A DNA stretch of 64,000 bases from Paraphysomonas bandaiensis (GCA_965644295.1 CBFFRP010000070.1:6570-70569); one strand, 5' to 3'. Positions 668 to 38,400 are shown, counted from the first letter of the stretch. Made by a program: numbers and translations. The notes: generated by a model from the letters alone, not told the origin.

Positions 668-2027
668 TGTGACCACGTGGCATTTCACATGCCTCAGTCA
701 CGTGTCTATAGTAAGTGCAAAACTACTAACTACGGGATGAAGACAGAGACGATAGAAGTATCAGAAACATATCATTATTACGCTACAGATTACTGAAGAA
801 CTAGCACTAGGACTGGAGGTACAATTTCCCATAATCTGCCAACAGCTCTTCGCCGGCCGCAACTGCCCGAGTGGTCTGCACCCAGACCACGTCCAAGCCG
901 GACTCATCTACTACAAATTCGCAGTTGAAGCGCCAGCCAGCAGCATGGTCAGAAGGATACACCGTGTTTATATACCTACCATGATTATGAGGCACCCGGG
1001 CCAAATAAGCTTGGGACCCCAGCGGCCAAAGGTAACCTATGTCCCGAGTGTCCCGCTCCGCATCTATATAGAAGTCCTTAGCCATCTCAAGTATGTATGC
1101 TCCCCAGCTGGGACGGGAGGTATACACTTCACCGCTGTAGAGGCAGAAACGCAGTCCTAGCTCCAAATCCTGTAAGGAGAATAAACCTTGCTGTTCAGGC
1201 TTATCGCCCTGCGGGTTGGCAATGTTTAGGCCAGACCGGACTTCCACATAGGGATTCACTGTCCCACACCTCTGGTAGAAGTCCAACACGCACTGGCAGA
1301 CTTCACCTCTTGCATCATACGATGACGAGTGCAAGTAAGGAACAACTTTGCACAGTTGCCTATGTGCATCAAGTTGTCCCTCGGGGCATCGAACGGAGCG
1401 TTCCCACATACGCCTAGCAGCAGCCCTTTCACGGTAGGCATACCGATACCGATTGGACCTACGTAATAGAGAGCCCCGTCCCCTACGATTGCGAGGTTTA
1501 GGCTTAGTGGAGACCGCTGCTGGATCTGTAGTGGCAGACATTGTTTATGCAGCAATGGATATGATGTATGTATCTGATGTGGACATTGGTTCTTAGTCTG
1601 AGATAGTAGATGTAGGAAAAGCATCATACGGTATGCTGCACACTCACATACATGTTGGTCCATTGTAATACAGTAGCAGTACTCTGAATACGCAGTATTC
1701 AACGGCTAATTTACAAACTGGCGAGTGTGGTGTGTGGTGTCATCGCGAGTGTGGTGTGTTGTGCTTGTTCTATGTTGCATTGCTTTACAGCTCAGTGTTT
1801 TGTTAAGTGTTGTTCTGTTTGTACACTAGTGTTCTGACTTCACTGGAGGTGGGGTTTGCGCGGTGATTCTTGGAGGGAGTCACTAGTACAAGCTTGCAAC
1901 GCTTGACATACTGTTTAGAGTAATAATCATCCTGTTCTCCTGCAATCAGACGTACATATAGCTCTGGTTAACTCATTGTGTTTGTTTCTGCTGCACAGCC
2001 TTGGTTATCAAACCTGGCTGTGTCATA
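668..2027 (+). repeat. Gypsy LTR, 1360 bp (TGTGAC...GTCATA)
   Basis: Starts with TG after the PPT. Identity with 6811-8170 ends at GTCATA(C). Imperfect terminal inverted repeat TGTGAC/GTCATA. Confidence 0.9.
807..1541 (-). CDS. SET-domain protein (putative lysine methyltransferase), 244 aa, antisense inside the LTR
   Basis: SET motifs in order: QQGLFS (GxGxF), LYSGE (YxG), YIDA, GRYINT...FNC (RFINHxCxPN-like), GEELLADYG (GEELxxDY). Basic N-terminus KPKPRNRRGR. No post-SET cysteines. Confidence 0.85.
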   Translation of the reverse strand: MSATTDPAAVSTKPKPRNRRGRGSLLRRSNRYRYAYRERAAARRMWERSVRCPEGQLDAHRQLCKVVPYLHSSSYDARGEVCQCVLDFYQRCGTVNPYVEVRSGLNIANPQGDKPEQQGLFSLQDLELGLRFCLYSGEVYTSRPSWGAYILEMAKDFYIDAERDTRDIGYLWPLGSQAYLARVPHNHGRYINTVYPSDHAAGWRFNCEFVVDESGLDVVWVQTTRAVAAGEELLADYGKLYLQS

Positions 2028-2651: not shown

Positions 2652-2666
2652 GATAAGGAGGTTAAC

Positions 2667-5600
2667 ATGATTGAGGACCTAGAAGAACATGTGATCAGTG
2701 TTTGTGATGGGAATGATGATTGTGATTATCTCCCAGAGGCTAAAACATTGAATACTACTTCTTCAAAGGTCCATTTCAAGGATGGAGCTAAGCTGTATGC
2801 TTCATATCCTTCAGCCAAGAAATTTTCATCAGCACATACTGTAGGTAGAGTAATTATAGACAAGAAGTTCGGAGTGGAAGAATTAGTGAAAGTTTTATGT
2901 GACACAGGAGCCCTATCCGCTAACTACGTAGCACGTGATCTTGTGGATAGATTGCGTACCAAGCTAGAACCTAGCAGGTTCTACAAGGTCAAACACCGTG
3001 TGGTTTTGGCAGACAGTAGAACCGTAAAGGATCTTGACGAAGGGGTTCGATTGAACTTAGTGTTTACCGATCCCAAGAGTCACACTTACCAGTACACTGG
3101 TGAGTTCATCGTGATCGACATGTCATCTAATGACATTATTTTGGGACTACCAGCCCTCACTGGGAAGCTATACCCTTTCATGTGTGCTGTCATGGAGCAG
3201 GCCCATGAGAATCATCTCGAAGATTCGGCTCAAGGGAACCATAATTTGAGTGCCCTACAAAATGAGGACATGGAATCCAGAGAGGAACACCGACGTCCCT
3301 GGAGTAAAGCGAATGATGCTATCGCTCCAGAAGATAACGAGACTGAGTTACCCGTTCAATTCAAAGATGCTTTGACATTCCTCGGAAAGTCTAGAGAGGA
3401 AGCTCTTAACGACTACTATGAACAAATAGAAACTCACGTCAGTCAGGAGATGAAACAAGAGACCAACATTATGGATCTCTTATCTTCCAAAGCTGAGAAG
3501 GTATTCGTGCCTGATGAGTGGACAGGAGTCCGAGGTGTTGACCCTTTGACTCTTAAGTGGAAAGAAACTTTACCTGAAAGAATGAAACCCAGAGCCAGGC
3601 CGATCAACCCTAAGCTCTGGGAAGCATCCGAAAAGGAGTTCAGGAGACTATGTGGTTATTTTTACCAGAAGAGCAGATCTCCTTGGGCTTCATGCTTGGT
3701 GGTTGCTCCCAAGGCTACTCCACCTTATATCCGATTCTGCGGGGATTATGTTAACATCAACAAGCACATGCAAGTGGGTAATTATACAATTCCCAATGTC
3801 AAGCATGAATTGGACAAGATCATCAATTTCCCATTGTATATGGACATCGACTTGACCAACGCTTTCCATCAGATACCTCTAGCGGAAGAAACATCAGAGA
3901 GGCTTTCTATCCAGACGCCATGGGGCCAATATGCGCCAAAGTTCATGCCAGAAGGTATTGCGCCGGCTACTGGAATTCTGCAAGAGGTAGTCAGGGAAAT
4001 ATTTGAAGATTTTTCTGACTGGGCCATTGTAATATTTGACAACATGTTGATATTGGCCAACGACCCTCAAGATGCGTATCAGAAATTTGAGAAAGTGATT
4101 GACAGATGCATCGAGAGGAATCTCAAACTGAAAATGCCAAAGAGTTGGCTTGGATTTAGAAAAGTAGACTTCTTCGGATACGTATGCAGACACAAATCCT
4201 ATGAAGTCAATCCTGAGAAGAAGGAAGCCCTAGGCAAAATCCCAATGCCTACCAACACCAAACAAGCGAGGTCTCTGCTTGGCAAGGGCGTGTTCTTTTC
4301 CAGTTTTACCCCTAGATATTCAGACTTGGTTGCTCATCTCACAGATTTGACCAAATCGAAATTCAATTGGGACAAGACTACGTGGCGGCACGATTATGAG
4401 GCTGAATATCGTCGCTTCATAAAAGGCCTGCAAGATTCCTGCGAATTGTTCTACCCAGACTACAATTTGGAGTGGACACTGCGTACTGACGCTAGTGAGC
4501 TAGGAATCGGCTCGGTGCTTCTGCAGAAAAAGATTCTCGCAGATGGAACAGAGCAGTTGCAACCCATTGCCTTCCTGTCAAAGAAGTTTTCAGCTCAGGC
4601 TCAGAAATGGGCTACGATAGAGCAAGAAGCTTATGGTATTTACTACAGTGTCAAGCACTTAGCGTACTATTTGATTGGGAAGCAGTTCACTATAGAGACT
4701 GACCACAATAATCTCTTGTGGATGGAGTCGTCTGAAGTACCTAAGATCACAAGATGGAGAATTTTCTTGCAATCTTTCAACTTCAGCATTAAACACATAT
4801 CGGGTGCCAAGAATTGGTTAGCCGATTGGTTATCTCGGGAGCATCAAGTTGCGGCGTTGTCCGGTATATTCTTAGATGAAGACTATGCCGATGCCTACTT
4901 CCTTGGAGAGGACTGCACTGAGGATGAATTTTTTAACTTCTTGGGCAATTTTATGAACCCAGAAGACAGGGAAGTATCTCCTCATGCGCAAAGTTCAGTC
5001 ACTCCCGAGGATGCCTTGCAACAAGTACATAATGCCCGAGTTGGACATCTCGGTGGGCGAGCCACTTGGATTCGACTTAATAAGCAATTCCCCGGCCATG
5101 GAATTCCTTACAAAGTAGTCGAAGACTTCATTGCGAAGTGTCCAAACTGTGTTAAGACTAGATTGGCGATGAAAGAAGCGCTGATCCCTATAGTCCGAAA
5201 CCTTAAGCCTCCGAGCGCTCGGAGTGCTATTGGTATTGATGCGGTAGAAATCACACCCCATGGTGCTGATGGATACACGCACATTAATGTCGTAGTCAAC
5301 CTGTTCACCAAGTTAGTTTATCTTGAGCCAGTCAAAGGAGTGACTGCCCTCAACTTGGCAAACACGGTATGGAAGTATTGGAGTTACTACGGACACACTG
5401 ATCTTATCATCTCAGATCAGGGTCCTGACCTAACTTCCGATCTTTTCAAACAACTGACTGAATATATGGGCGTCCGACACACCTTCAGCATAGCCAACAG
5501 GCATGCTAATGGTTGTGAACGCATCATCGGTGAGGTGGTCCGACATTTGCGTGCCCTAGTATATGAAAACAGCAAGCGTGTAGAACGAAAGGATGTTTTT

Positions 5601-6632
5601 GAGGATCCCAGCTGGATACCCAGCGCTCAATACATTCTGAATTCAGAAGTCTCATCCGAGACGGGGTACTCACCCTTTGAGCTCACTTTTGGCTCTAATG
5701 ATCTGGAATATTTAACTATGAATATACAGACTTTGCCTGAGCGTGCACACGCCAGACTGACTGCTCTTAATGAACAGTTAGAAGGCCTACGGGCGGCTTC
5801 CAAAACTTACCAGCAGCAGTTAGCGAGTGAACGTGCTGGGGAGGGAGTTCACCCGGACAAGCAGAACCGATATCAACCGGGCGACTTCATTTTATTTGAC
5901 AAAGGCGCCAAGGTTCATCCCAAGATGTCACATCGATACATGGGACCTTTTGTTGTTAAGACCCAGTACAAAAATGACATTGATTGTCAGCACCTTGCTA
6001 CAGGGCAAGTGGTACGTGTTTCAGTGACAGACGTCAAACTGTTTCCAGGTGATAGAGAAACTGCGTACAGCATGGCTCTACGAGACCAGGATCAGCATGT
6101 CATTGACAAGATTCTCTACTATCGGGGTGACAGAGAGTCACGCTCCACTTTGATTTTTACTGTGAGATTTCAGGATGGTGATGTCAGAGAAGTGCCTTAT
6201 AGCAAGGACCTTTTTGACTCAGTGCCTTACGCGGACTTTTGTTCCAGCAAACGGTACCTCTACCACCTGATTTATCCAGCGGAGGGTGCCAAGAAATATA
6301 TCTCGGACATCCGACGCCAGTCTATCACTCAGTTCAAACCCGGTGACCATGCATATGTTGACCTACGCATTTATGGCGACGTATGGTACGACGGACTGCA
6401 GTTACCAGACTCCCACTTACTGACCTATGTAGCTCCGATCCAGTTCACACACTGGTATCATCGAAGCTCTAGGAGAGTATTATCCGTCAAGGATCTTCTC
6501 ACTCTCCGCACTTACCGTTATGACAACTACCTCGTGCATTGTTTCGTTCACCCTGAACTAGACACTAGCACTATGGTACTAGTCGACAAGGACTTGGCTA
6601 CACGCTACCCTCAAGTCCTTGAGTCCGTTTAG
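2667..6632 (+). CDS. pol: Gypsy Pol: aspartic protease, RT, RNase H, integrase, chromodomain-like module and extra C-terminal domain
   Basis: PR LCDTGA. RT DLTNAFHQI, MPEG, IFDN. RH TDAS/EQE/TDH/LADWLSR. IN HHCC (H..GH..CPNC) plus D,D,E (GIDA, ISDQG, GCER). HVIDKILYYRG...FTVRF. Confidence 0.97.
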   Translation: MIEDLEEHVISVCDGNDDCDYLPEAKTLNTTSSKVHFKDGAKLYASYPSAKKFSSAHTVGRVIIDKKFGVEELVKVLCDTGALSANYVARDLVDRLRTKLEPSRFYKVKHRVVLADSRTVKDLDEGVRLNLVFTDPKSHTYQYTGEFIVIDMSSNDIILGLPALTGKLYPFMCAVMEQAHENHLEDSAQGNHNLSALQNEDMESREEHRRPWSKANDAIAPEDNETELPVQFKDALTFLGKSREEALNDYYEQIETHVSQEMKQETNIMDLLSSKAEKVFVPDEWTGVRGVDPLTLKWKETLPERMKPRARPINPKLWEASEKEFRRLCGYFYQKSRSPWASCLVVAPKATPPYIRFCGDYVNINKHMQVGNYTIPNVKHELDKIINFPLYMDIDLTNAFHQIPLAEETSERLSIQTPWGQYAPKFMPEGIAPATGILQEVVREIFEDFSDWAIVIFDNMLILANDPQDAYQKFEKVIDRCIERNLKLKMPKSWLGFRKVDFFGYVCRHKSYEVNPEKKEALGKIPMPTNTKQARSLLGKGVFFSSFTPRYSDLVAHLTDLTKSKFNWDKTTWRHDYEAEYRRFIKGLQDSCELFYPDYNLEWTLRTDASELGIGSVLLQKKILADGTEQLQPIAFLSKKFSAQAQKWATIEQEAYGIYYSVKHLAYYLIGKQFTIETDHNNLLWMESSEVPKITRWRIFLQSFNFSIKHISGAKNWLADWLSREHQVAALSGIFLDEDYADAYFLGEDCTEDEFFNFLGNFMNPEDREVSPHAQSSVTPEDALQQVHNARVGHLGGRATWIRLNKQFPGHGIPYKVVEDFIAKCPNCVKTRLAMKEALIPIVRNLKPPSARSAIGIDAVEITPHGADGYTHINVVVNLFTKLVYLEPVKGVTALNLANTVWKYWSYYGHTDLIISDQGPDLTSDLFKQLTEYMGVRHTFSIANRHANGCERIIGEVVRHLRALVYENSKRVERKDVFEDPSWIPSAQYILNSEVSSETGYSPFELTFGSNDLEYLTMNIQTLPERAHARLTALNEQLEGLRAASKTYQQQLASERAGEGVHPDKQNRYQPGDFILFDKGAKVHPKMSHRYMGPFVVKTQYKNDIDCQHLATGQVVRVSVTDVKLFPGDRETAYSMALRDQDQHVIDKILYYRGDRESRSTLIFTVRFQDGDVREVPYSKDLFDSVPYADFCSSKRYLYHLIYPAEGAKKYISDIRRQSITQFKPGDHAYVDLRIYGDVWYDGLQLPDSHLLTYVAPIQFTHWYHRSSRRVLSVKDLLTLRTYRYDNYLVHCFVHPELDTSTMVLVDKDLATRYPQVLESV

Positions 6633-6810
6633 AGCACGGGACCAATCAACTTACACGCGATCTTCCAACTCCAACGCTCCTCTGCTGCACCTTCGTTTTG
6701 ATGGCTAATTTTTAGTTCCGTTGAAATTTGTGGGCCGCAGAGTGACGCCCGTCTTCATCATTTCGCATAATACTTATATCAAACAAAAAAAAAAAAGGGA
6801 GGCGGGGCAA

Positions 6811-8170
6811 TGTGACCACGTGGCATTTCACATGCCTCAGTCACGTGTCTATAGTAAGTGCAAAACTACTAACTACGGGATGAAGACAGAGACGATAGAA
6901 GTATCAGAAACATATCATTATTACGCTACAGATTACTGAAGAACTAGCACTAGGACGGGAGGTACAATTTCCCATAATCTGCCAACAGCTCTTCGCCGGC
7001 CGCAACTGCCCGAGTGGTCTGCACCCAGACCACGTCCAAGCCGGACTCATCTACTACAAATTCGCAGTTGAAGCGCCAGCCAGCAGCATGGTCAGAAGGA
7101 TACACCGTGTTTATATACCTACCATGATTATGAGGCACCCGGGCCAAATAAGCTTGGGACCCCAGCGGCCAAAGGTAACCTATGTCCCGAGTGTCCCGCT
7201 CCGCATCTATATAGAAGTCCTTAGCCATCTCAAGTATGTATGCTCCCCAGCTGGGACGGGAGGTATACACTTCACCGCTGTAGAGGCAGAAACGCAGTCC
7301 TAGCTCCAAATCCTGTAAGGAGAATAAACCTTGCTGTTCAGGCTTATCGCCCTGCGGGTTGGCAATGTTTAGGCCAGACCGGACTTCCACATAGGGATTC
7401 ACTGTCCCACACCTCTGGTAGAAGTCCAACACGCACTGGCAGACTTCACCTCTTGCATCATACGATGACGAGTGCAAGTAAGGAACAACTTTGCACAGTT
7501 GCCTATGTGCATCAAGTTGTCCCTCGGGGCATCGAACGGAGCGTTCCCACATACGCCTAGCAGCAGCCCTTTCACGGTAGGCATACCGATACCGATTGGA
7601 CCTACGTAATAGAGAGCCCCGTCCCCTACGATTGCGAGGTTTAGGCTTAGTGGAGCCCGCTGCTGGATCTGTAGTGGCAGACATTGTTTATGCAGCAATG
7701 GATATGATGTATGTATCTGATGTGGACATTGGTTCTTAGTCTGAGATAGTAGATGTAGGAAAAGCATCATACGGTATGCTGCACACTCACATACATGTTG
7801 GTCCATTGTAATACAGTAGCAGTACTCTGAATACGCAGTATTCAACGGCTAATTTACAAACTGGCGAGTGTGGTGTGTGGTGTCATCGCGAGTGTGGTGT
7901 GTTGTGCTTGTTCTATGTTGCATTGCTTTACAGCTCAGTGTTTTGTTAAGTGTTGTTCTGTTTGTACACTAGTGTTCTGACTTCACTGGAGGTGGGGTTT
8001 GCGCGGTGATTCTTGGAGGGAGTCACTAGTACAAGCTTGCAACGCTTGACATACTGTTTAGAGTAATAATCATCCTGTTCTCCTGCAATCAGACGTACAT
8101 ATAGCTCTGGTTAACTCATTGTGTTTGTTTCTGCTGCACAGCCTTGGTTATCAAACCTGGCTGTGTCATA
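6811..8170 (+). repeat. Gypsy LTR, 1360 bp (3' LTR of copy 2)
   Basis: Two substitutions seen versus 668-2027. Confidence 0.9.
6950..7684 (-). CDS. SET-domain protein, second LTR copy (V10G and Q243P versus first)
   Basis: Same motifs as 807-1541. Confidence 0.85.
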   Translation of the reverse strand: MSATTDPAAGSTKPKPRNRRGRGSLLRRSNRYRYAYRERAAARRMWERSVRCPEGQLDAHRQLCKVVPYLHSSSYDARGEVCQCVLDFYQRCGTVNPYVEVRSGLNIANPQGDKPEQQGLFSLQDLELGLRFCLYSGEVYTSRPSWGAYILEMAKDFYIDAERDTRDIGYLWPLGSQAYLARVPHNHGRYINTVYPSDHAAGWRFNCEFVVDESGLDVVWVQTTRAVAAGEELLADYGKLYLPS

Positions 8171-8438
8171 CAATAGCTGGGAGGCGTCATAGTACAACAC
8201 TCAATTGAGGGGGAGTGTTGAGATCTGAAGATTCTATATACTTGCAATTGAGTGCAGTATTATGTGAGATGCAAGGATCGAAAGATATATATGTAATTAG
8301 TACATTATATTATGTAGTATGAAACTGAAGTAGAAGTGGATGACTATACAGGATACGATCACTGAGTGTGTGGTTTGTACACTATAGTAGTAAATGAATG
8401 GTGTTGAACACATCGAACACAACTTAGGTTCTTTATCA
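8171..8438 (+). mobile_element. Probable 3' end of a third Ty1/copia element (PPT plus ~220-bp 3' LTR 8216-8438) into which the gypsy inserted
   Basis: ATTGAGGGGGAG (like the PPTs of the two full copias) followed directly by TGTTG; candidate end ...TTTATCA. The partner LTR is not in the window. Confidence 0.55.
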
Positions 8439-8532
8439 TGTAATGTTTATAATTTCATCTTATCAGTTGAGAATAGTAAACCTTAGCAAATAATGTCAAC
8501 TTCTGTTACTGTGAGTCACAAACATATAGACA

Positions 8533-8847
8533 GCAGATAACGTTCTTCCCACTCAGAACAATAGTTGTGTGGTACAAGGAAAACTACAATATAAGTATAA
8601 AAGTGTCACTTGTGTAGACTTCTTGGGGCCTTGACGAATAAACAGGCATCCGGGACTGGGCCCACCTGAAGGGCATCCGGGGTATTGGGCTGCTTTTACT
8701 AAAGTCAAGCATCCCGGCTTTTCACCTTAATGACAGAGAGCGAAATTGGTTGCACCTTTTGGCGCTAAAAAGTAGGATATCAGAGTTAAGCACTAGGTAG
8801 TTAAATTGTATTACTAATTTATACACACCAATTGCTAGTAATAAGAC
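8533..8847 (+). repeat. Dispersed non-coding repeat family X (putative non-autonomous DNA transposon)
   Basis: Shares GAATAAACAGGCATCCGGG...GTCAAGCATCC...CACCTTAA...GATATCAGAGTT blocks with ~20960-22010 and 59760-60446; right-end block also at 53958-54090 (reverse). Confidence 0.7.
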
Positions 8848-11407: not shown

Positions 11408-14129
11408 AAATATCCCACTTTTACGAATATTTGGATCACCGTATAACGGACTTGCCGAACAATAAATGTTCGGAAAATCGGTTTATCTCCACCGTATAAT
11501 TATGATATCTAGAATATCTCGATTTTACGAACACATTATTGTTCGGCATTTTTTTACCGTTTGGCCACTATCGCCATTCAAACCATACAACACCAATGCC
11601 CATAAACTGCAAGAACAAAGAACTTAGAACAAATAAAGCACTTAAAACAAACCAAGCACAATGGATATTATTAGAGAGCAAAGTGAGTTCAGAGATGAGA
11701 TTGCACAGCAAACCAAGCAGATGCGGTTAACGGATAGCACCCGCAGGCAATATGCAGACAGGGTCAGGGCCTTTGCACATTGGCTTGATGAGCATTACCC
11801 CGCCTGCGTGGAAAGAGACAACGGTGACAAGCTCACACCAATACTACCGATACCTGACGTAGTCATGGAAAAGTACATGGCTCATGTGCTTCTTAAAATA
11901 GACAGCCGCACTGGTCTGTACTATGACCCTCCACAATATTACTCGTTTGCACACGTTAATGGACATCGAAGTGCTCTTAAGAATATGTACACGGAAAAGC
12001 GAATGAACCCTTCACCGGAAATAGAGAGTATGTTTAAGGAAACTCTCGAGGGATTCAAGAGGAAGGTTGCTGACCTTAAGCAGCGTGGCTTATTACCTTC
12101 ACGAGAAGGCAAGGCTGCAATGACCATGAAAGGGTACATATTTCTTGCAGAGAAAGCAGCTAAACAGGACCATGACTTTGGACTGTATACATTTTGCTTG
12201 TCCTATTTATTGCTATGCTGGAATTTGATAGCAAGATCTGTAACAGTTGCACATATAATGTACGATCATATATCTTGGGAGGAGGATGCACTGACCATTA
12301 ATATTGGCAAACAGAAGAATGATCAAGAGGGAAGCAATGGATTTCCGCGTCATATATATGCAAACCCAAAAAACCCTATAATATGTCCTATTTTGGCATT
12401 ATCAGTATGGGTGTTTACTCAAGGCTATCATCGTGAAGGCTCTGATAGGCGCCTCTTCGGGAACCCAAGAAGTTCTCAAGATCGATTTGAGAAATGGCTC
12501 TCTAAAGTACTTAAAACATTTGCTGATGCTATTATATCTCTGGGTATAATGATTGCAGAAATAGGAACACACTCATTCAGAAAAGGTGTTGCAACGGCAT
12601 TAGCTAATTGCCCTGGTGGACCCAGTGCCATAAATATATGGTTGCGAGCTGGATGGAGTTTAGGACCCGTTCAGAGTCGATACATATTTGAAGGAGCAGG
12701 TGGAGATCAATTTGTTGGCAGGGCAGCTACAGGTATATCAAGCAGTGATCCCGACTTTGCTATTCTTCCACCTCATTTCGATGACACTAATGGCCCGGTT
12801 CTATCCGTTGAAGAATGGGAAGACATACTGCCTGGCTTCACATCATTCTATCCTGAGAATTTTAGAGTGGCTTTGCCTTATCTTCTTGCTTCGCTGGCAT
12901 ATCATCATGACTGGCTATTAGACACTCTTTCACCAAATCATCCTCTGTTTCTTCAAAGAGTTTGGACAAGTGGTATACTACAACGTCTACGACCGAAAGT
13001 ATTAACTGGTGTGTTTCGAAATGATGTGTCAAGAATGAATGCTACTGGTGTTCCACCCAATGTGATTCTAGCTAATCGTATGTCGTCGCTGGAAGCAAAT
13101 GTCGGGAACTTATCTAGAGGTATGCGAGAAATGCATACGACATTACCGGAAGCATTGTGTACGAGAATGCTTGATAAGTTTACAGTTAATGGTGCGGTGC
13201 CAATAACTAGTACCGACATCGATAGTCTACGCGAAACACTTTTAGAAGAAATCAGAACAAGATGTACTCCACATAATGTGGAGCAAATTTCTACACAAGA
13301 AGAGCAATCCACATCACAAGAGAAGCCTGGATTTTACACATGGGGAGGGCGCCATCATTTGTTTCCAGAGGGCTTTCGTTTTCCAAAAGGTAACATAAAA
13401 ATGCTGTGGGATCTGTGGTGGGGGGGAGAACCTCAGAGACATATATTACCCTACAGAAAAATCAAAGGCTTCGATTTATCCCGAACTGACCGGGTAAACT
13501 GGAGTAAATGTACCTGCATCATGAACGCACTAGTCTCCAAGGGCATAGAGATGAACGAGATCGGAGCAGTAGAGGATATTAGTAGCCTACTACCACGACA
13601 AAGAGATGCGTTATTCAGCAAAGTGTTTATACCTTTCTGTATGAACATATTCGCGGTTGCTAATCCCGTTCTTCTCGATGATATAGGCATCGGAAAAATG
13701 TCATATACGACATTCTACGATTACATGAAGGGTCGCAAGAGGAATAAACGTAGACGGAATGAAATGGAGCAAACGGAAGAAGATAATTGACTGGTACATG
13801 TCTATGTTTGTGTCGTATATACGTGAGGGGGTCTGTGAGACTATTAACAGTCACCTTCACGTATATACATGAACAGACATCGCATTAATGGAGGGGTTGA
13901 TGAGAATATGACGCTCAAGTAGATAGCTATCGGCTTCTGGTGTAGATATCATCTTGTTTCATGGCACTACTGACAGTTTAAAGTAACATGTAAAGTTGAA
14001 CGTTAGATGACATACACATACAACACCATTCTACAACAGTACTCTACCACAATTATACAACAGTATACAGCAGTAATACTACATAATACCGTTCTGTTCG
14101 TATACTGTTCGTAAAAGCGGACCTTCTAT
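11408..14129 (+). mobile_element. Crypton (tyrosine-recombinase DNA transposon), unit 1, 2722 bp
   Basis: Single intronless YR ORF, no long TIRs. Short AAATATC/AAGTATC direct repeat at the ends. Repeated at 14130-16851. Confidence 0.9.
11661..13790 (+). CDS. Crypton tyrosine recombinase with probable GCR1_C-like C-terminal DNA-binding domain, 709 aa
   Basis: Catalytic R(LIARS)-K(KQKND)-HxxR(GTHSFRKG)-W(RAGW)-Y(QSRY). GDQFVGR motif. C-terminal FPEGFRFP...LWDLWWGG. Confidence 0.9.
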   Translation: MDIIREQSEFRDEIAQQTKQMRLTDSTRRQYADRVRAFAHWLDEHYPACVERDNGDKLTPILPIPDVVMEKYMAHVLLKIDSRTGLYYDPPQYYSFAHVNGHRSALKNMYTEKRMNPSPEIESMFKETLEGFKRKVADLKQRGLLPSREGKAAMTMKGYIFLAEKAAKQDHDFGLYTFCLSYLLLCWNLIARSVTVAHIMYDHISWEEDALTINIGKQKNDQEGSNGFPRHIYANPKNPIICPILALSVWVFTQGYHREGSDRRLFGNPRSSQDRFEKWLSKVLKTFADAIISLGIMIAEIGTHSFRKGVATALANCPGGPSAINIWLRAGWSLGPVQSRYIFEGAGGDQFVGRAATGISSSDPDFAILPPHFDDTNGPVLSVEEWEDILPGFTSFYPENFRVALPYLLASLAYHHDWLLDTLSPNHPLFLQRVWTSGILQRLRPKVLTGVFRNDVSRMNATGVPPNVILANRMSSLEANVGNLSRGMREMHTTLPEALCTRMLDKFTVNGAVPITSTDIDSLRETLLEEIRTRCTPHNVEQISTQEEQSTSQEKPGFYTWGGRHHLFPEGFRFPKGNIKMLWDLWWGGEPQRHILPYRKIKGFDLSRTDRVNWSKCTCIMNALVSKGIEMNEIGAVEDISSLLPRQRDALFSKVFIPFCMNIFAVANPVLLDDIGIGKMSYTTFYDYMKGRKRNKRRRNEMEQTEEDN

Positions 14130-16858
14130 AAATATCCCACTTTTACGAATATTTGGATCACCGTATAACGGACTTGCCGAACAATAAATGTTCGGAAAAT
14201 CGGTTTATCTCCACCGTATAATTATGATATCTAGAATATCTCGATTTTACGAACACATTATTGTTCGGCATTTTTTTACCGTTTGGCCACTATCGCCATT
14301 CAAACCATACAACACCAATGCCCATAAACTGCAAGAACAAAGAACTTAGAACAAATAAAGCACTTAAAACAAACCAAGCACAATGGATATTATTAGAGAG
14401 CAAAGTGAGTTCAGAGATGAGATTGCACAGCAAACCAAGCAGATGCGGTTAACGGATAGCACCCGCAGGCAATATGCAGACAGGGTCAGGGCCTTTGCAC
14501 ATTGGCTTGATGAGCATTACCCCGCCTGCGTGGAAAGAGACAACGGTGACAAGCTCACACCAATACTACCGATACCTGACGTAGTCATGGAAAAGTACAT
14601 GGCTCATGTGCTTCTTAAAATAGACAGCCGCACTGGTCTGTACTATGACCCTCCACAATATTACTCGTTTGCACACGTTAATGGACATCGAAGTGCTCTT
14701 AAGAATATGTACACGGAAAAGCGAATGAACCCTTCACCGGAAATAGAGAGTATGTTTAAGGAAACTCTCGAGGGATTCAAGAGGAAGGTTGCTGACCTTA
14801 AGCAGCGTGGCTTATTACCTTCACGAGAAGGCAAGGCTGCAATGACCATGAAAGGGTACATATTTCTTGCAGAGAAAGCAGCTAAACAGGACCATGACTT
14901 TGGACTGTATACATTTTGCTTGTCCTATTTATTGCTATGCTGGAATTTGATAGCAAGATCTGTAACAGTTGCACATATAATGTACGATCATATATCTTGG
15001 GAGGAGGATGCACTGACCATTAATATTGGCAAACAGAAGAATGATCAAGAGGGAAGCAATGGATTTCCGCGTCATATATATGCAAACCCAAAAAACCCTA
15101 TAATATGTCCTATTTTGGCATTATCAGTATGGGTGTTTACTCAAGGCTATCATCGTGAAGGCTCTGATAGGCGCCTCTTCGGGAACCCAAGAAGTTCTCA
15201 AGATCGATTTGAGAAATGGCTCTCTAAAGTACTTAAAACATTTGCTGATGCTATTATATCTCTGGGTATAATGATTGCAGAAATAGGAACACACTCATTC
15301 AGAAAAGGTGTTGCAACGGCATTAGCTAATTGCCCTGGTGGACCCAGTGCCATAAATATATGGTTGCGAGCTGGATGGAGTTTAGGACCCGTTCAGAGTC
15401 GATACATATTTGAAGGAGCAGGTGGAGATCAATTTGTTGGCAGGGCAGCTACAGGTATATCAAGCAGTGATCCCGACTTTGCTATTCTTCCACCTCATTT
15501 CGATGACACTAATGGCCCGGTTCTATCCGTTGAAGAATGGGAAGACATACTGCCTGGCTTCACATCATTCTATCCTGAGAATTTTAGAGTGGCTTTGCCT
15601 TATCTTCTTGCTTCGCTGGCATATCATCATGACTGGCTATTAGACACTCTTTCACCAAATCATCCTCTGTTTCTTCAAAGAGTTTGGACAAGTGGTATAC
15701 TACAACGTCTACGACCGAAAGTATTAACTGGTGTGTTTCGAAATGATGTGTCAAGAATGAATGCTACTGGTGTTCCACCCAATGTGATTCTAGCTAATCG
15801 TATGTCGTCGCTGGAAGCAAATGTCGGGAACTTATCTAGAGGTATGCGAGAAATGCATACGACATTACCGGAAGCATTGTGTACGAGAATGCTTGATAAG
15901 TTTACAGTTAATGGTGCGGTGCCAATAACTAGTACCGACATCGATAGTCTACGCGAAACACTTTTAGAAGAAATCAGAACAAGATGTACTCCACATAATG
16001 TGGAGCAAATTTCTACACAAGAAGAGCAATCCACATCACAAGAGAAGCCTGGATTTTACACATGGGGAGGGCGCCATCATTTGTTTCCAGAGGGCTTTCG
16101 TTTTCCAAAAGGTAACATAAAAATGCTGTGGGATCTGTGGTGGGGGGGAGAACCTCAGAGACATATATTACCCTACAGAAAAATCAAAGGCTTCGATTTA
16201 TCCCGAACTGACCGGGTAAACTGGAGTAAATGTACCTGCATCATGAACGCACTAGTCTCCAAGGGCATAGAGATGAACGAGATCGGAGCAGTAGAGGATA
16301 TTAGTAGCCTACTACCACGACAAAGAGATGCGTTATTCAGCAAAGTGTTTATACCTTTCTGTATGAACATATTCGCGGTTGCTAATCCCGTTCTTCTCGA
16401 TGATATAGGCATCGGAAAAATGTCATATACGACATTCTACGATTACATGAAGGGTCGCAAGAGGAATAAACGTAGACGGAATGAAATGGAGCAAACGGAA
16501 GAAGATAATTGACTGGTACATGTCTATGTTTGTGTCGTATATACGTGAGGGGGTCTGTGAGACTATTAACAGTCACCTTCACGTATATACATGAACAGAC
16601 ATCGCATTAATGGAGGGGTTGATGAGAATATGACGCTCAAGTAGATAGCTATCGGCTTCTGGTGTAGATATCATCTTGTTTCATGGCACTACTGACAGTT
16701 TAAAGTAACATGTAAAGTTGAACGTTAGATGACATACACATACAACACCATTCTACAACAGTACTCTACCACAATTATACAACAGTATACAGCAGTAATA
16801 CTACATAATACCGTTCTGTTCGTATACTGTTCGTAAAAGCGGACCTTCTATAAGTATC
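14130..16858 (+). mobile_element. Crypton, unit 2 (tandem copy)
   Basis: Offset 2722 from unit 1; identical protein. Confidence 0.9.
14383..16512 (+). CDS. Crypton tyrosine recombinase, copy 2
   Basis: Identical 709-aa translation. Confidence 0.9.
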   Translation: MDIIREQSEFRDEIAQQTKQMRLTDSTRRQYADRVRAFAHWLDEHYPACVERDNGDKLTPILPIPDVVMEKYMAHVLLKIDSRTGLYYDPPQYYSFAHVNGHRSALKNMYTEKRMNPSPEIESMFKETLEGFKRKVADLKQRGLLPSREGKAAMTMKGYIFLAEKAAKQDHDFGLYTFCLSYLLLCWNLIARSVTVAHIMYDHISWEEDALTINIGKQKNDQEGSNGFPRHIYANPKNPIICPILALSVWVFTQGYHREGSDRRLFGNPRSSQDRFEKWLSKVLKTFADAIISLGIMIAEIGTHSFRKGVATALANCPGGPSAINIWLRAGWSLGPVQSRYIFEGAGGDQFVGRAATGISSSDPDFAILPPHFDDTNGPVLSVEEWEDILPGFTSFYPENFRVALPYLLASLAYHHDWLLDTLSPNHPLFLQRVWTSGILQRLRPKVLTGVFRNDVSRMNATGVPPNVILANRMSSLEANVGNLSRGMREMHTTLPEALCTRMLDKFTVNGAVPITSTDIDSLRETLLEEIRTRCTPHNVEQISTQEEQSTSQEKPGFYTWGGRHHLFPEGFRFPKGNIKMLWDLWWGGEPQRHILPYRKIKGFDLSRTDRVNWSKCTCIMNALVSKGIEMNEIGAVEDISSLLPRQRDALFSKVFIPFCMNIFAVANPVLLDDIGIGKMSYTTFYDYMKGRKRNKRRRNEMEQTEEDN

Positions 16859-20665: not shown

Positions 20666-22010
20666 GTCTTATTATTAGCAATAGGTGTAAAAACTCAGCA
20701 CCAGCTCGGCGACGTACAACCAAACCGGGCGTTCATATTATCGTAGAATACATGCGTATTTTGTATGTGATAGTATTAGTAAGGTATATATTATATATGA
20801 TAATAATATAAACCTTTATGGAAAATTTGGCTATTCGTGGCTATGTAGCTGTTTCTAGTGTCAGAAATTTTCTAAAACTACGTTACGTATGAGACAATAG
20901 GTAATAGTAGGCATAGCGGATATGGATATACGTTTTATAGACCCTCAACAAAGTTCTGGAGGATAAGTTCCGGGAAACTAACGTGAGCCGCATATATATA
21001 GTCTGATAACGTTCTGTCCACTCATAGCCTAATAATGCTTGTGTGGTACAAGAGGGACACCAATAAAAGTGTAAGTGTCGCTTGTGTAGACGACTTTGGG
21101 CCTCTTGACGAATAAACAGGTATCCGGGAATGGGCTCACCTCAAGATGCAGACGCATATATAGCTATCTTCACCACTACTTACAGTCGTAGTATTAGTAT
21201 CTATGCTCGGAGACGACGCGGCAACGGGCACATTACTAGTAGGTGGAGGATCATATAAGCAGGTGGACGATCATCATTTTTTCTCATCAAAAGATCACGA
21301 AGTTCTGCTAGTCCGGACATCATTTCCTGACGAAGTTCAGCAGCAGTGGGAGGTATCAGATCTGCTTTCTGCTGGGATTTGACGACCTCGCCATCACCTT
21401 TATGAACAGTACTACTTATTCTGCTCGTGCGCTTTCGTGGTACCTCTTCCTCCGAGTCGTCGTTGGATATATGTCGCCACGAATGTCGACGACATTCTTC
21501 TTCCTTTTGCACTTTCCTACACCATTACACACAGCAGTTAGTACACAGTGTATAGTAACAACGCACAACAATAATCAGAACAATACCGCATATATATACG
21601 AACTACGATCCCGTCATCATCTTTATGAACAGTATTACTTACCCTGCTCGTGCACTTTCATGGTATCTCTTCCTCCGGGTCGTTGGGTATGTCATCTGAG
21701 AGTGGGGTATCGTACAAAGAATAGCTTTATAATATTATGCTTGACGGAATAGCTTGAACTGTATAATATGTGTGTGTAGTCGGTGACTTTTATTGCTGTA
21801 AAACTGAAGTAAAATATATGCAAGAAAGTAGTAAAAAATATTATAAACAATATTCCTCACATATCTTCATAGCTAGTTATTGTGCATATTTATACCCTTT
21901 TCCGACCATCAGCAAATATTTCACCAGGTTTTGGTACTACCTCGACTTAAGGGCATCTGGGGCATTGGGCTGCCTCTACTGAAGTCAAGCATCCCGGCGG
22001 TTCACATTCA
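20666..22010 (+). repeat. Repeat family X copy, split by an ~800-bp insert (~21145-21940) that has an internal ~80-bp direct duplication
   Basis: Family blocks at 20960-21145 resume at 21945-22010; duplication ~21394-21474 / ~21616-21693. Confidence 0.55.
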
Positions 22011-22821
22011 CTACTGATTATAGATATATACTATACTTTAAGTGTGCTACAGCTTTTAGGTCTCCAGTGTTATTACCCCGTTATTGAGTTACTTATATTG
22101 CCCTAATTTGGCTGTGCACATAGAATAAGAAGATAAGGATATTTGTGTTTAAGTCGCGTCAAATAAAAATCTCAGTGATTTTAACTGTACAGAGAACAAG
22201 GACGCAGACGATTGTGTTGTTCTTAGCTTCTTGATAAAATAGTAAGAAAGAAAAGGAGTACTCTATTCTTTGCGTCATTGTGTAGTGTACAATCGTATAT
22301 CGTATCTATGCTTGTCTTCCACTTCAACATTTTCAATATAGAAGAAACATAACGTGCTTTGCATTTTCTTTGTCCTATATTCACGGTTAGTGTGTGGCTA
22401 TTTCTTTGTTGATGATTGTTATGAACAAAAGCTGTTCTCAAATAAATTAAATTATGGTTAATTTCCGCTAACAAGAGAAGCAGAGCCTTTACTAGAATTA
22501 TACTATTTCAAATGACAATATTTTAATATTGTAAGTTCTATCACAACCTTGAGAGCTACTACTTCGTTAAGTACTAGTTCATTGATAGCTATATAAAATT
22601 TAAAACTAAATATTCAAGAGGAAATACGAGGTTAAATACAATATATCCACATCGATACGCGTTCGAGACGTAATCAGGCAGAAGTCTTAAATTCACTTGT
22701 TGAGCTAAAGCTGACTTCTTCACAGGGCTCCAATACGGAATACGTATGGTTACGTCCGGCTGGACTTTCCATATTATCACTCCCTTGAACGGTATCGTCA
22801 CTCTCTGCAAGTGCAAACATA

Positions 22822-32143: not shown

Positions 32144-32408
32144 TATTAGGATTCAGCTTAATACATGATTGTATCTGTGAGTTATAATGTTCAATGAAAT
32201 ATACCATGAACTGAATTAGAGAGAGTATCTGTCTAAGATACGTGATCGTCATCATAACGTCGTCATTATCAGTTACACTTCTAACTATTCCGTTGTTGTG
32301 CATGATAGTACGTTCTATATTGTTATTCATAATCTTTACTCTATCGTGTTCATTTCTTACACTCTAATAATCACAACATTGTTTTACTAATAAGCTTAAA
32401 TCTTATTT
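32144..32408 (+). repeat. Copia-A 5' LTR (265 bp)
   Basis: Differs from the 3' LTR by a 3-bp indel and one substitution seen. Confidence 0.92.
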
Positions 32409-32418
32409 TGGTAGCGAG

Positions 32419-35400
32419 ATGTCAGTTAAAGTTACAAGTTACGACTCAACCGACTCGGATTCAACAACCGAAAAACAGAAAGACTCAATGCCAAAGTTCG
32501 ACGCGAAGAACTTCTTCTGCCGTGCATGGTTTTACAGAAAGCCCAAGATCGTTTATACCCTACAAAACGATCATCCAACTGAACCTGAAGAAGGAGAGAT
32601 TTCAGATGACGAAGATTATCAATATCGACTCGACCAGTATCACGAAACGAAACGATATTATGATGAAGGTAATAACTACCTATGGTCTGTCATTTCGAGC
32701 GCTGTCATTGGTCAGGATGAAGAGGCCGAAGGGATTTTGGAAAACGTCCCCGATGGAGACGGAAAAACCGCCTGGACCGATCTGCTAGCCCACTTCAAAG
32801 AAGAAACGACTAACGATGTAATCACCGATCTGATTGGCCAATTTCAGAGCCTAAAAATCAAAAAAGGTCAGTCAATAATCAATTTTCTTGACGCTATCGA
32901 AAAGCTCAAAAACAAGCTTATCAATTATGGTCATCGGATCAACGACCAAGACTTAATATCCCGAATACGACAGGGAATTGTTTCAGAAGATAACATGGTT
33001 TACCGAGAATTGGCAATTAATCTGCAGCTACATCCAATTGATGATTATAAAGTATTGATTCGCAGACTTCGCGGGTTAGGAAGCTCATCTGTTGGAACGC
33101 TCCTATCATCCAACAATGAAGACACAAAAACTGACAGTAGTCACCTCGCAGCATCAAAAACCCCATTTTCCCGCAGCAAAGTCAATTTTAAGCGAAAAAG
33201 GGGGACATCTTCCAAATATCGCTCCAATAAACAGAAACATGATAAGAGAACCGATAAAGACATTAAGTGTTTCAGATGCGGAGGAAAGGGGCACATTGCA
33301 TCGGAATGCAAGCACTCCTGGGAGAAGATTCAAGAGATGAAAAGCTCCTCCGACAACAAGTCATCAACAAGAGGAAAACCGAAATTCAAGAGAGTGAAAT
33401 TCCAGACTCAAAGTAACGAATATTTCCACGACCACTCTGATCAACTTGCAAATTATGAAGACAGTGGTCCATCGTCAGATTATCAAAAAGGACGAGACTA
33501 CGGAGGAGTTGCTTACACACCGAGCGATGAATCACACTTCGTTAGTGATCAAAAGGCAGGAATGGGATCTCTTGACTCGGGGTGCACAGTATCAATTACA
33601 TCAGAAGCAAGCTACCTTACGGACTACACTGATTGCCTCACCGAGATTCAAACAGCCAAATCAGGGTCTACAATGATATCCTCAGGTCATGGAAGACTTG
33701 GAATCATCCCCAACAAGTGCAAACACGTGGACCAAGCGTCTAGGACCCTCATTTCTATTAGCCAACTGGATGACCTCGGACATGAAATCATATTCAGAAA
33801 CCAGTCAGTGGAAATATTTAAAGACGGCATATTGCTATCGAAAGGCCAGCGCGTTGGAGGACTATACGAAATTCCACTATCAGACCTCGGTATTCCCACT
33901 GATGAATCTCACCTCGCATCAACTGCCTCAGGTCAACCTGCACTGTTAGCACATAAGAGACTAGCACATGCATCACTTGGACTCATACAGAAGGCAATAA
34001 AATCACGTCTAATAACTGGTGTCAAGATGACAAAGGAGGAGATGAGTGTTGCCTCTCTACCTGGCGGTTTATGCGATGGATGTGCGACTGGGAAATCACA
34101 TAGACGCAAGCACAGGAATGCCACCCGCCAAATGTTGTTGAAAAGAATGAGAAGGGCAAAGGAGCTGGGGGAGCTCATAGTAGCCGATTTCTCAGGACCA
34201 CATACACCCGATGCAATTATTACCGGAAATCGATATGTACTTGGGATCGCTGATGTAGCATCAAGGTACCAGTGGGACTCCTACGTAACAACGAGAGATG
34301 AAAATTTCGTTATCCAATCCATTCAGAAAGTCGTCACGTATCTACACGCAGTAGGGGTAAACAACTACAACATTACCACGCCGATGGAGGGAAGGAACTA
34401 GTCTCACGAAAAGTATTGGAATATCTCCAATACATTGGAGCAACATGGACTTTTAACGCTCCATATACGCCCGAGGACAACCCATTTCAAGAGCGACCAT
34501 GGAGAACCATCAAAGAACGAGCACTTAGTAGCTTGATGGATTCAGGTCTTCCAACGAATTTCTGGGAACAAGCCATGAAGACATCCACACACATGAAGAA
34601 CAGAGGCTACCTTCTTGCAAAACTGCTAAAGGATTCATGTCCCCACTCCAATTCATCGAAAACGAAATACCAGACTTGAGTTATGCCAGAATATGGGGAT
34701 GTAAATGCTTTGTGAATATCGATTCCAGTCTCCGAAAGAACAACTGGGACAGACATATAGCTGGCCTGGGTATTTTATGGGCTATCGAGAGGATGGTCCT
34801 GGATATATAGTCTTTGTTCCCGCATTAAGAGATTTTGTTATATCAGGACATGTATTTTTCAACGAATGCGTTCCACCAGCGGATAAGAGATATTTTAAAG
34901 AGATAAATGAGATCTTCAGAGAGAATGAGACCTCCAGGACAGTAGAAAGTTTCAAATATCTCATAGGTCTAGCTCATGTAGATCCAGACGATGGATTAAC
35001 ATATGTAACGACTCAAATAAAGCTCAGAAAAGGATTAATCGCAGCATATCGTGGTCTAGTGGACGACAGCGGTGACACTACACGAATCATCCAGCTCGAC
35101 GACCCCATTCATGCTGCAGACGTCGAAAAGTACACTGAAGAATACATAGAACTCAAAGCAATTGGTCTCAAATGTAATACGTCTCGATCGAAAACCCCAA
35201 TACATAAATCCAGCAAATCAGATCGAGACCCCGATACAGTTAATGGATCTCCAGCGCCAGCCGCTACTTCCAGGGGGAGTGGCGTGAATCTACGACATCA
35301 TGATGCCGTGCAGGAGAGAATCAGCAGCCATCGGGATGAACCTACCCACTCCGATGCAAAGATAGCGAAGACTCGCCCTTCGAAACAATTCAATGGGAAT

Positions 35401-38400
35401 CTAGTGCCGAATCCGGCACCACACGGTCAAGTGGATCGTGTGCGTCAGCGTGTGGCCAAACGCTGTAACAAGCCTGTTGATTCATCGGGAGATTCGGAAA
35501 ATCAGGTTACACCTGAAGGGCCAAGTAAGGTCCGTGCTACAGCAAAACAACAATTTTTAGCTGCTGGTAGAAAGAGTGTTCTCCGAAGCAGGAGAATGGC
35601 CAGGAAACGGGTAATTGTAAATATACACAAACTAGGTGATGGTGTATATACATGTGATGTAAATGCTAAACATGTAGTAAATCATATGGCACATGACACA
35701 CAATGTATATCAAAATTACATATACAAACAATATTGATATTGTTATGCATGCTATCAGTAATTGCGATGACATTGACGAGCTAACCGATACACCAAAGAG
35801 TGTTCAAGATGCTATTTCAGGTAAATATAAACAGCAGTGGATCGATGCTATCAATAGAGAAATATCCACCCTTCAGAGGAAAGGGTGCTGGAGATACACT
35901 GCGTTACCACCTGGAGCAAGAGCCATAAAGGGGAAACTCATATTCAAAATAAAAAGAAAACAGAATGATATCAAATTCAAGGCTCGACTAGTCGCACAGG
36001 GTTTTACTCAAATCCAAGGCATCGATTACAATGATACATACAGCCCCGTCGCAAAGGCTACATCACTACGTACAATTATTGCCCTTTCGACTATTATGAA
36101 ACTCAAATTGCACCAAATCGATTTCACAACTGCGTACATCAATGCTGACCTCGAAGAGGACATATACATGTATCCCCCTCCTGGCATGGACGTCCCTGAC
36201 GGAAAAGTCCTCAAACTGATGAAAAGCATCTATGGTCTAAAGCAAGCAGGTCTTAACTGGTATAAGTGCTGTACAAATTTTATGCTAGATATGGGTTTCA
36301 CCAGACTAATATCTGACCCGTGTATATTCAAAAAGCAGATTAATGGCAGGATTATGCTAATAGCCATGTATGTGGATGATATTATTATAGCATCTACATC
36401 CGACACTGATATCCAACAATTCAAAGACCATTTATCCAAAAAGTTCGAAATTACGGATCTCGGACTCCTAGATTATTACTTGGGCATCTCCATTCATCAA
36501 GATTTTGACAAAAATATCACGACTCTCAGTCAGGAGCAGTACGTCAGAAAGCTACTGGACAAATTCAACATGTCCAACAGTAAACCCATGTCAACACCTA
36601 TGTTACTGTCTTTCAACTATGATTTACATGAATACAATCATCTTTCAGAGTCAAATCAAAGTTATGTTCAGAATTTCCCCTACAAGGAGCTCATAGGTTC
36701 CCTAATGTATCTAGCTGTATGCACTCGACCGGATATCGCCTATGCAGTCAATACTCTTGCCAGATTTTCTGATATGCCTAATCTAACTACCTGTAAATTA
36801 CCAGAGAGAGGCAACAAAGACGAAGAGGGTAATGAGATGGGAAGCATCCTGCACCAGTTTAATTGCAATGAGGACTCCTTCACAGTTAACATTGGTGGTT
36901 ACAACCAAACATACTGCCGCAAGAAGTTCATTTCAGATGGTGGTTCTTCTGTAAAGTGTTTCTTGGATTTGGAAATGCTATCGATGATCCCTTTATTGTT
37001 CAATTACTATGTACTTTCAGCTGTACTTGGCAAAGACGGTTCATATGTTAACTATTCTCGCTGTTGGGTGAGTAAAAACTCTGATGGAAAACAATACGTT
37101 GTTCTCTGTTATCTTCGGACCAAATGTAACAAATGGCGCTGTGACAGTGTTCTGTATGATCCCACTGAAAGTGGAAAAATTTTTCTGCTTACAGGTTTAT
37201 CAAAAATGAAGCAGTACACTTTCCTTCCCGAAGTATCTCTCGACCATGACTGGGCGAAGTCAATTTTGGAAACCTATCTCCGCGACCCAAAGAACAAACT
37301 TGCATGGGACCCACAAGGAGATGTTCCGAACAAGGATGAGACGGGAAACTGGATTCTTGATGGCTGGGATCCTGTAGAAGAAGGGTTGAAAGCAGCATTT
37401 GATCTCAGCAGCAAGAAGAGGCTTAGAAAGCGAAAGGCCTCTGTTCGATTTGCGGATGAAAATTTCAGTTCTGGCACTGGCAAGAAACCGAGAAAAAAAG
37501 CAAACAAACCAAGTCAGCGTGCTGTTGCGGTACGTATATACAACTGAATTAATTTTGTTATAACTGACCATAAAATATCTTGTGTAATACAGAAGAAGGC
37601 TGTTAGTGCAGTTGCTGCAACGGAAAATGATGAGAGAGATCGTGGCGAAGATGATCCTGTTATTATTGTCAAGCCAGCAGAGCCAAAGCGTCAACATCAA
37701 GCAAGAAACACTCTTCCAAAGAAACCAGATATTCAAGAAGAATTGGAGGCCCAGAAACGGCGAACTGCTGAATTGGAGCAGTTGCTGATGAGTAAGACTC
37801 AGCCGACGAAAGCTTCTGCCCCTGCTGCTGTTGTGGGTGATAACTCTTTGTCTACGCAGACTACTGAAGTTCATCAGCGGACACCCTCTGCTGTAGGTCA
37901 CAGTTACGAAATGACTCAACCGCCAATTTCTCTTCATGCGATGAATGCGATTAGATATGTTGAAAATGTAAAATTTGCAGATGCATTGCGCATGGCAGAT
38001 CAGAATGCCTACTTGCAGCGGGAAAATATTATTTTGAGACAGTCAATGTTTGGTAGTGGCAATCAGTAAGTAGTAGTAGTGATGTAACGATTTCGTAGTG
38101 ACATAATCTTATTATAATATAATAAATGTTTAGAATTAGTCCAATTATCGTGTTATTTGCTAGTATACCAGACTTTCTCAAATATACCCTATATATATAG
38201 TACACATCACCTGGTCAAAGTACTTGACCAGGTTTTTACCTACCATCGACTTAATGCTGCGTTACATACATGTTCTTAGGTATCTCAAAGGCACTGCTAA
38301 GCAAGGATTGATATATTCTGGATCCCACATAACATTGTCAGGATACTGCGATAGCGATTGGGCACGGTGTCACCTCACTCGACGGTCCACTACAGCCTTT

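Follow-up and report, generated by a model that had tools for sequence, protein, structure and literature searches.

SET-domain genes are known as accessory cargo of several DNA transposons, including the Phytophthora elements HarbingerS and MuDR (cited in PMC12730594), proto-Helentron-Pi (PMC4067079), and PAG2, a Plavaka element of Bostrychia (10.1101/2025.02.11.637652); as far as these sources describe them, the function of the cargo is putative in each. In chromoviruses, such as MAGGY in group I and the plant elements of group II, a chromodomain-like module follows the SH3/GPY-F domain of the integrase (PMC3350952, in its account of the two groups). A stretch of 64,000 nucleotides from Paraphysomonas bandaiensis (GCA_965644295.1 CBFFRP010000070.1:6570-70569), referred to here as the window, contains a Ty3/gypsy retrotransposon with long terminal repeats (LTRs) that has both a chromodomain-like module at the end of its integrase and a SET gene of likewise putative function. 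Its carrier differs from those described for the DNA transposons in being an LTR retrotransposon, with the gene lying antisense within the LTR.

The initial annotation of the window had proposed that these two parts form a reader–writer pair, in which the SET protein would deposit a mark that the integrase recognizes. That a probable chromodomain and a conserved SET protein occur in one element is borne out here; the pairing is not, given an incomplete aromatic cage and SET-less relatives that keep the module. Instead, we favor, at about even chances and from sequence comparison, the reading that the LTR SET gene is an exchangeable cargo likely to encode a nuclear lysine methyltransferase favoring the element's own chromatin, and that the cage-poor, clade-wide module is likely independent of it. 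It is more likely that the two work separately on chromatin than that they form a matched writer and reader, because the usual methyl-lysine pocket is missing from the module, which relatives without SET retain.

An Antisense SET Gene Within the LTR

Two near-identical copies of the element, copy B upstream and copy A downstream, are represented in the window, bases 1–2028 being a repeat of bases 6144–8171 with three mismatches. A purine tract followed by TGTGAC occurs at 668 and at 6811, and the GTCATA of the repeat ends at 2027 and at 8170. Relatives were collected by a metagenome scan with the integrase tail as query, which gave 161 confirmed matches, the best 80 of which were kept as 78 loci (L numbers below). 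In two of these, L002 and L003, the LTR start after the purine tract and the LTR end match those of the window, and the context of the end is similar. Because the TGTGAC and GTCATA ends recur in both repeats and in L002 and L003, the LTR is assigned a length of 1360 bp with the SET open reading frame (ORF) inside it. The 3′ LTR of copy A spans 6811–8170 (+) and is preceded by a polypurine tract (PPT) at 6785–6807 (+), identified from the sequence and found at the same position in L001–L004. The ORF, at 7684–6950 on the minus strand, falls within this LTR, as the initial annotation had placed it, and the described convergence with pol is reproduced, the two stop codons lying 317 bp apart. A location between pol and the LTR was rejected, since SET lies downstream of both the PPT and the LTR start in the window and in L001–L003. 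As a separate observation, the LTR ends read TG...TA instead of TG...CA in the window (668–2027), L002, and L003.

The ORF (6950–7684, −) encodes 244 amino acids and, on the evidence of a profile match and motifs I–IV, belongs to the SET-domain superfamily. The match of the window protein to the Pfam SET model (E=4e-4, 21.1 bits) is slightly below the cut-off of 22.4, which is passed by seven relatives: P0005–P0008, which are 43–66% identical, and L001–L003. The motifs are recognizable as QQGLF, YSG, RYINT...NC, and ELLADYG, and the motif II Tyr, the motif III Asn, and the DY of motif IV are retained in seven of eight aligned members. Active histone lysine methyltransferases canonically carry the motifs RFxNH and GxG; these are not matched in the window SET, which reads RYINT and QQG, whereas KMT5A shows the canonical motif in the profile-match alignment. 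The SET is minimal, with neither pre-SET nor post-SET zinc modules and no post-SET cysteines, and is preceded by a basic N-terminal stretch in which 15 of 38 residues are Lys or Arg. A 12-row profile that includes statistically unconfirmed divergent SET-like rows matches KMT5A, PRDM9, and a bacterial SET at E ~1e-5 (7e-6 for KMT5A and PRDM9), compared with E-values of 0.0015–0.004 from a 6-row profile. Because these best solved relatives tie at E ~1e-5, the residue that would be marked is not predictable.

The frame is conserved among relatives, for which reason an accidental antisense frame was rejected. It is kept at 35–48% identity, and L001 and L002 give a dN/dS of ~0.3 with dS near saturation. 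The SET cluster of the window has 76 members; among the 15 listed, nine are full length and two diverge after residue 145. In addition, a 52% identical SET, P0007, is a complete ORF on a 915-nt contig of a transcriptome assembly.

The Integrase Tail and Its Aromatic Cage

The integrase tail comprises three domains: a C-terminal SH3 domain of the GPY/F type (5859–6050, +), for which SH3_Tf2-1 is matched in 49 of 98 members, the chromodomain-like module (6093–6270, +), and a third conserved β-rich domain at the Pol C terminus (6312–6629, +) that has no family assignment. Conservation of this arrangement extends to 45 relatives of full length and, at E<=0.001, to 883 representatives of clusters. 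An AlphaFold2 model of the tail from 98 rows has a mean pLDDT of 94.8, and its residues 1–65 match the SH3 domain of the foamy-virus integrase C-terminal domain (Z 7.6, rmsd 3.0, 62 aligned). Residues 79–140 are modeled as three strands followed by helices, with a pLDDT of 95–98 across residues 81–140, and three strands followed by a helix is the chromodomain layout in the description given in PMC3350952.

The module itself is probably a degenerate chromodomain, a reading that rests on this model and on motif alignment. The initial annotation had noted a chromodomain pattern after the integrase core, and the module is located there, with its strands and helices predicted and its sequence support weak. 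Chromo is found by Pfam in one of 56 module members (E=0.061), compared with 14 for DUF7141 and 11 for a Tudor model; the nearest named ESM Atlas cluster is Chromo (0.82), which serves as a lead only. Nothing significant was found by the module profile among PDB sequences, the best match being the KDM4A Tudor domain at E=0.21. Fold searches with the three-domain model returned lists filled by SH3 matches, with no classical chromodomain listed for residues 79–140.

The cage positions are altered, as had been suspected. His, Phe, and Gly occupy the equivalents of Y24, W45, and Y48 in the window, and the Y24/W45/Y48 aromatic cage of group I (HP1-like) chromodomains is not found in the module. A survey of 275 sequences (79 loci rows, 45 near proteins, and 151 representative matches, redundancy included) shows that this is a property of the clade. 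The Y24 column contains Tyr in 103, Phe in 86, and His in 74, so that Tyr or Phe is present in 189; the W45 column contains Phe in 225 and Tyr in 47, with Trp absent among the listed residues; and the Y48 column contains Gly in 229. Three cage aromatics are found in one sequence, two in 186, and one in 87; the window lacks the first and third. In group II chromodomains, too, the first cage residue is lost and in most cases the third as well, and they are described as having no known ligand (PMC3350952, in its treatment of that group). The Trp of a TWE-like motif, a motif that group II retains, is present in 183 of the 275 and is Glu in the window. All six rows of the window subclade have His, Phe or Tyr, and Gly at the cage, with Glu or Asp replacing the TWE-like Trp; with His first and this Trp replaced, the elements with a confirmed SET have the least canonical module.

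The third domain is modeled with four to five strands and is conserved among relatives, yet it has no PDB profile matches and nothing in Pfam or the Atlas. As a side observation, this unclassified, clade-conserved domain (6312–6629) is a candidate chromatin reader. No relative of the integrase tail was found among viral contigs.

Distribution of SET and Module Among Relatives

The clade provides a natural comparison, in that close relatives carry SET, another cargo, or none and have one integrase tail in common. In L001, L002, L003, and L005, as in the window, an antisense SET follows pol, always in one slot and on one strand. These, together with L004, form a SET-carrying subclade of six rows (SH-aLRT 100, in a quick tree with long-branch warnings), with SET in five of the six. 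No SET was found in 1020 bp of flank in L004, compared with distances of 150–320 bp in the other members. Because four of the five other loci of the subclade have the antisense SET, it is an inherited cargo. The identities of SET and of the integrase tail rank alike in the four carriers, with L001 and L002 closest in both; this agreement fits shared descent, four carriers being too few to argue for co-evolution.

The module is present in 78 of 78 loci, in part by selection, as the query contained it. In a slot census, 26 loci were examined, in 23 of which the interval between the pol stop and the following long plus-strand ORF, gag, was readable. One readable locus has SET, two have an unrelated Cys/His protein, and 20, including four near-identical pairs, have no antisense ORF longer than 122 codons; the module is present in all. 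The co-occurrence of SET and module, on which the initial annotation had let its proposal stand or fall, is thus contradicted by the 20 of 23 loci that retain the module without a long antisense ORF. Cargo-less loci occur near loci with a SET-like ORF: L055 is sister to L037, and L051 and L052 are close to L034. By these comparisons, the LTR slot is exchangeable, with cargo gained and lost while the module stays.

Outside the subclade, six loci (L034/L069, L037/L067, and L074/L075) share the slot and have antisense ORFs, of three highly divergent families, in which SET-like motifs can be seen by eye, a likeness that is statistically unconfirmed. L034 and L069 give a dN/dS of 0.08 over 170 codons, and the L037/L067 family has further relatives, P0291–P0294. 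None of these divergent ORFs has a Pfam match, a leave-one-out profile failed to recover those of L034, L037/L067, and L075 (best E 2.9–4 over 11,981 frames), and HHalign comparisons are weak (probabilities of 42, 0.8, and 0.2, with controls at 0.1 and 0.2). A second antisense cargo occurs in four loci of one subclade (L042:6825-7973, L054:5292-6212, L056:3818-4480, and L076:6272-7462, all minus). It has no significant PDB or Pfam match; its conserved Cys, His, and DP motifs give it, by eye, the look of a papain-type peptidase or deubiquitinase.

Proposed Role of the SET Protein and Alternatives

For the favored reading, of a cargo SET that acts apart from the module, a mechanism can be outlined. 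SET would be transcribed leftward from the LTR, its product could enter the nucleus through the basic N terminus, and it may methylate a histone lysine such that the LTRs remain transcribable or host silencing marks are displaced. The location in the LTR implies two gene copies per element and survival in solo LTRs, by which the gene would also spread. The integrase tail (SH3 domain, chromodomain-like module, and third domain) would separately direct insertion via a host-made feature of repeat-rich chromatin, a manner of steering that has been proposed for the plant group II chromodomains (PMC3350952, in its discussion of that group). Since the 244-residue protein is small and easily expressed, the role of a transposon-borne methyltransferase, whether anti-silencing, self-limiting, or targeting, is directly testable.

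Several observations weigh against this reading. The motif III His is replaced by Thr or Ser in all eight aligned SETs, motif I varies at its first Gly, the SET structure model is poor (pLDDT 40.8 from 6 rows), and a Pfam scan found no DNA-binding domain in SET that would restrict its action to the element's own copies. The parallel ranking of SET and integrase distances in the four carriers is also what co-evolution would predict. Calls of SET absence may miss very divergent, spliced, or broken SETs, as the leave-one-out failures illustrate, and the cage register comes from an alignment to the chromo-box motif as given in PMC3350952, with no structural superposition.

Among the alternatives, the one that survives best, although still unlikely, is that SET methylates a non-histone protein, such as Gag, the integrase, or a host silencing factor. 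That the SET is minimal and lacks both kinds of zinc module would suit such a substrate, and the peptidase-like look of the Cys...His...DP cargo would suggest that the slot holds protein-modifying enzymes in general. However, Gag and Pol work without SET in most complete relatives, and the basic N terminus would better fit a nuclear or nucleosome-binding protein.

A reader–writer pair could also be non-canonical, with SET laying down a low-methylation mark near family copies that a His/Phe pocket or the third domain reads, giving self-made landing sites. Both parts are within one element, and the module of the SET subclade is a version of its own, with His at the first cage position in six of six rows; however, this His is not confined to the subclade (74 of 275 sequences have it), and L004, the member in whose flank no SET was seen, shares it. 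The third domain keeps W25, Y39, and Y45 in at least 90% of 56 rows, and the top Foldseek matches of the three-domain model are the SETDB1 Tudor and L3MBTL MBT domains, which are tandem methyl-lysine readers, at a TM of ~0.2 and an rmsd of 16–22. Both the module and the third domain are nevertheless retained by SET-less elements, and the L005 SET lacks both key tyrosines. The arrangement of the copies had been described in the initial annotation as one that self-made sites would fit. The copy B LTR does abut mid-gag of copy A, which is 99.85% identical; most simply, copy B was inserted in the copy A gag, although the arrangement may instead be a tandem with a deletion. Against its use as support, copy A itself abuts a copia-type end, the SET-less locus L078 is tandem as well (it self-repeats at 8285 bp, possibly as an assembly artifact), and clustering cannot be judged from one case of nesting. 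A preference for repeat-rich DNA would account for this nesting as readily as self-made sites would. We regard this form of pairing as improbable, and the same low weight is given to its wider version, in which the subclade would write its own landing mark at copies and solo LTRs, a remodeled tail would read that mark and so produce nesting, and the LTR slot of the wider clade would be a swappable cassette for chromatin effectors (SETs and the peptidase-like protein).

A further improbable alternative is that SET writes a repressive mark and acts to limit the element itself or to silence competing elements or genes of the host, for which chlorovirus vSET is a likened precedent. In size and in the arrangement of its motifs, the protein is like the small SETs of viruses and bacteria, a wider SET alignment gave short, weak matches at eight bacterial and three viral loci (with E-values relative to the candidates only), and an antisense LTR gene would suit feedback control. 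However, the close SET alignment found no relative among viral contigs, and the search of these contigs and of the bacterial and viral candidate loci turned up no close donor. The least probable alternative is a SET fold with little or no catalytic activity that serves as a binder or decoy, for the motif III His and motif I Gly are altered family-wide and L005 keeps its 247-codon frame intact despite the loss of both tyrosines, but both tyrosines and the Asn are kept in seven of eight aligned members, and the best solved matches include PRDM9, an enzyme that is active although it lacks the motif III His.

Other Features of the Element and Its Surroundings

Copy A has an intact Pol ORF (2652–6632, +; 1326 codons) in the Ty3/gypsy order of protease, reverse transcriptase (RT), RNase H, and integrase, in which QHVIDK begins at 6093, FTVRF at 6156, and VPYSKDL at 6192. 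This domain order in a gag-pol arrangement, together with the PPT and the LTRs, identifies the element as a Ty3/gypsy LTR retrotransposon. Upstream of pol lies a 3′ remnant of gag with a CCCH finger (2028–2651, +; zf-CCCH_12, E=0.003). Gag is cut at the LTR junction (2028), leaving ~207 codons compared with 634 amino acids in L002, and the leader and about two thirds of gag are absent; residues 571–629 of the L002 Gag match window bases 2451–2627. Neither this truncation nor the third domain of the integrase tail had been noticed in the initial annotation. The unit in the window is 6143 bp long, whereas several Pol-cluster members of full length lie on contigs of ~7.9–8.2 kb. The Pol cluster, at 85% identity, includes P0236, labeled taxon 36769, genus Paraphysomonas; going by this label, the host is likely a chrysophyte, a protist of the golden-alga type. 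Copy B is represented by the 3′ end of its pol (1–489, +), cut by the window edge, and by its LTR, TGTGAC...GTCATA (668–2027, +; 1360 bp), in which the SET ORF (807–1541, −) is intact and differs from the second copy at two amino acids. No tRNA primer site was recognized by eye after the LTR in L002.

The RT active site reads FDN in place of YxDD (4032–4043), and [FY]DN replaces YxDD in all long Pol relatives that match the pattern, with five lacking a pattern match; the FDN-type motif is a clade-wide trait. In one relative, a 900-codon ORF at the gag position (L052:3148-5847, +) has a weak match to an ADP-ribosyltransferase (ART) model (E=0.03).

The window is rich in other mobile elements. 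The flank of copy A (8171–8440, end approximate, +) has, by eye, a short stretch of at most ~45 bp after the right LTR and then a copia-type purine tract and a probable LTR start, which resemble the PPT/LTR junction of a copia element at about 59350–59370. Because this tract and LTR start directly follow, copy A apparently sits in a copia element. Two copia elements are present at 32371–37547 and 54154–59664, the second with identical LTRs of 295 bp. A tandem duplication at 11408–16858 has a 2722-bp unit (99.96%) and contains a 714-codon ORF with no Pfam match; motifs such as HSFRKG suggest, by resemblance, the tyrosine recombinase of a Crypton-like element. A MITE-like family of dispersed repeats with inverted arms occurs at 8523–8820, 20991–22017, and 59856–60383.

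Comparison with Known Systems

Similar to the chromoviruses, the element has a chromodomain-like module after the SH3/GPY-F domain of its integrase, with cage aromatics lost as in group II. The likeness is one of the integrase tail, and relative to the chromoviruses as described in PMC3350952, the element differs in having Phe or Tyr for W45, a third domain, the FDN-type RT, and the LTR SET, with the TWE motif lost in the subclade. The DAM-LTRs and EpiLTRs (10.64898/2026.05.21.726589) are LTR elements that also pair a chromodomain with an epigenetic writer; their writers are DNA methyltransferases encoded in pol, and the term SET occurs zero times in the main text of that report. Orchid elements are reported to carry an m6A demethylase (PMC9289625).

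Antisense extra ORFs are common in plant elements, according to the survey in PMC7264820, and those of Grande, RIRE2, Retand, and Boty are, like the window ORF, conserved and converge on pol. They differ in lying between pol and the 3′ LTR and, in that account, in having no known function, whereas the window ORF is in the LTR and has a recognizable enzyme fold.

A retrotransposon with a SET domain has been described in the cryptophyte Geminigera. Dualen-1_GCr, a LINE, has SET together with a C48 cysteine peptidase, echoing the two cargo types of the present clade; it differs in being a non-LTR element in which SET is fused in a 5287-residue polyprotein, and neither an integrase nor a chromodomain is listed in its description (PMC5029228). 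No LTR retrotransposon with a SET gene was found in the literature searched, which lies outside Repbase Reports, subscription journals, and preprint supplements, and an earlier database annotation may exist. No functional test was described for the SET-carrying mobile elements encountered there, and the searches turned up no publication that joins Paraphysomonas with LTR retrotransposons. SET cargo is thus already known from DNA transposons and from one LINE, and its occurrence in an LTR retrotransposon, as read from the present sequences, is apparently new.

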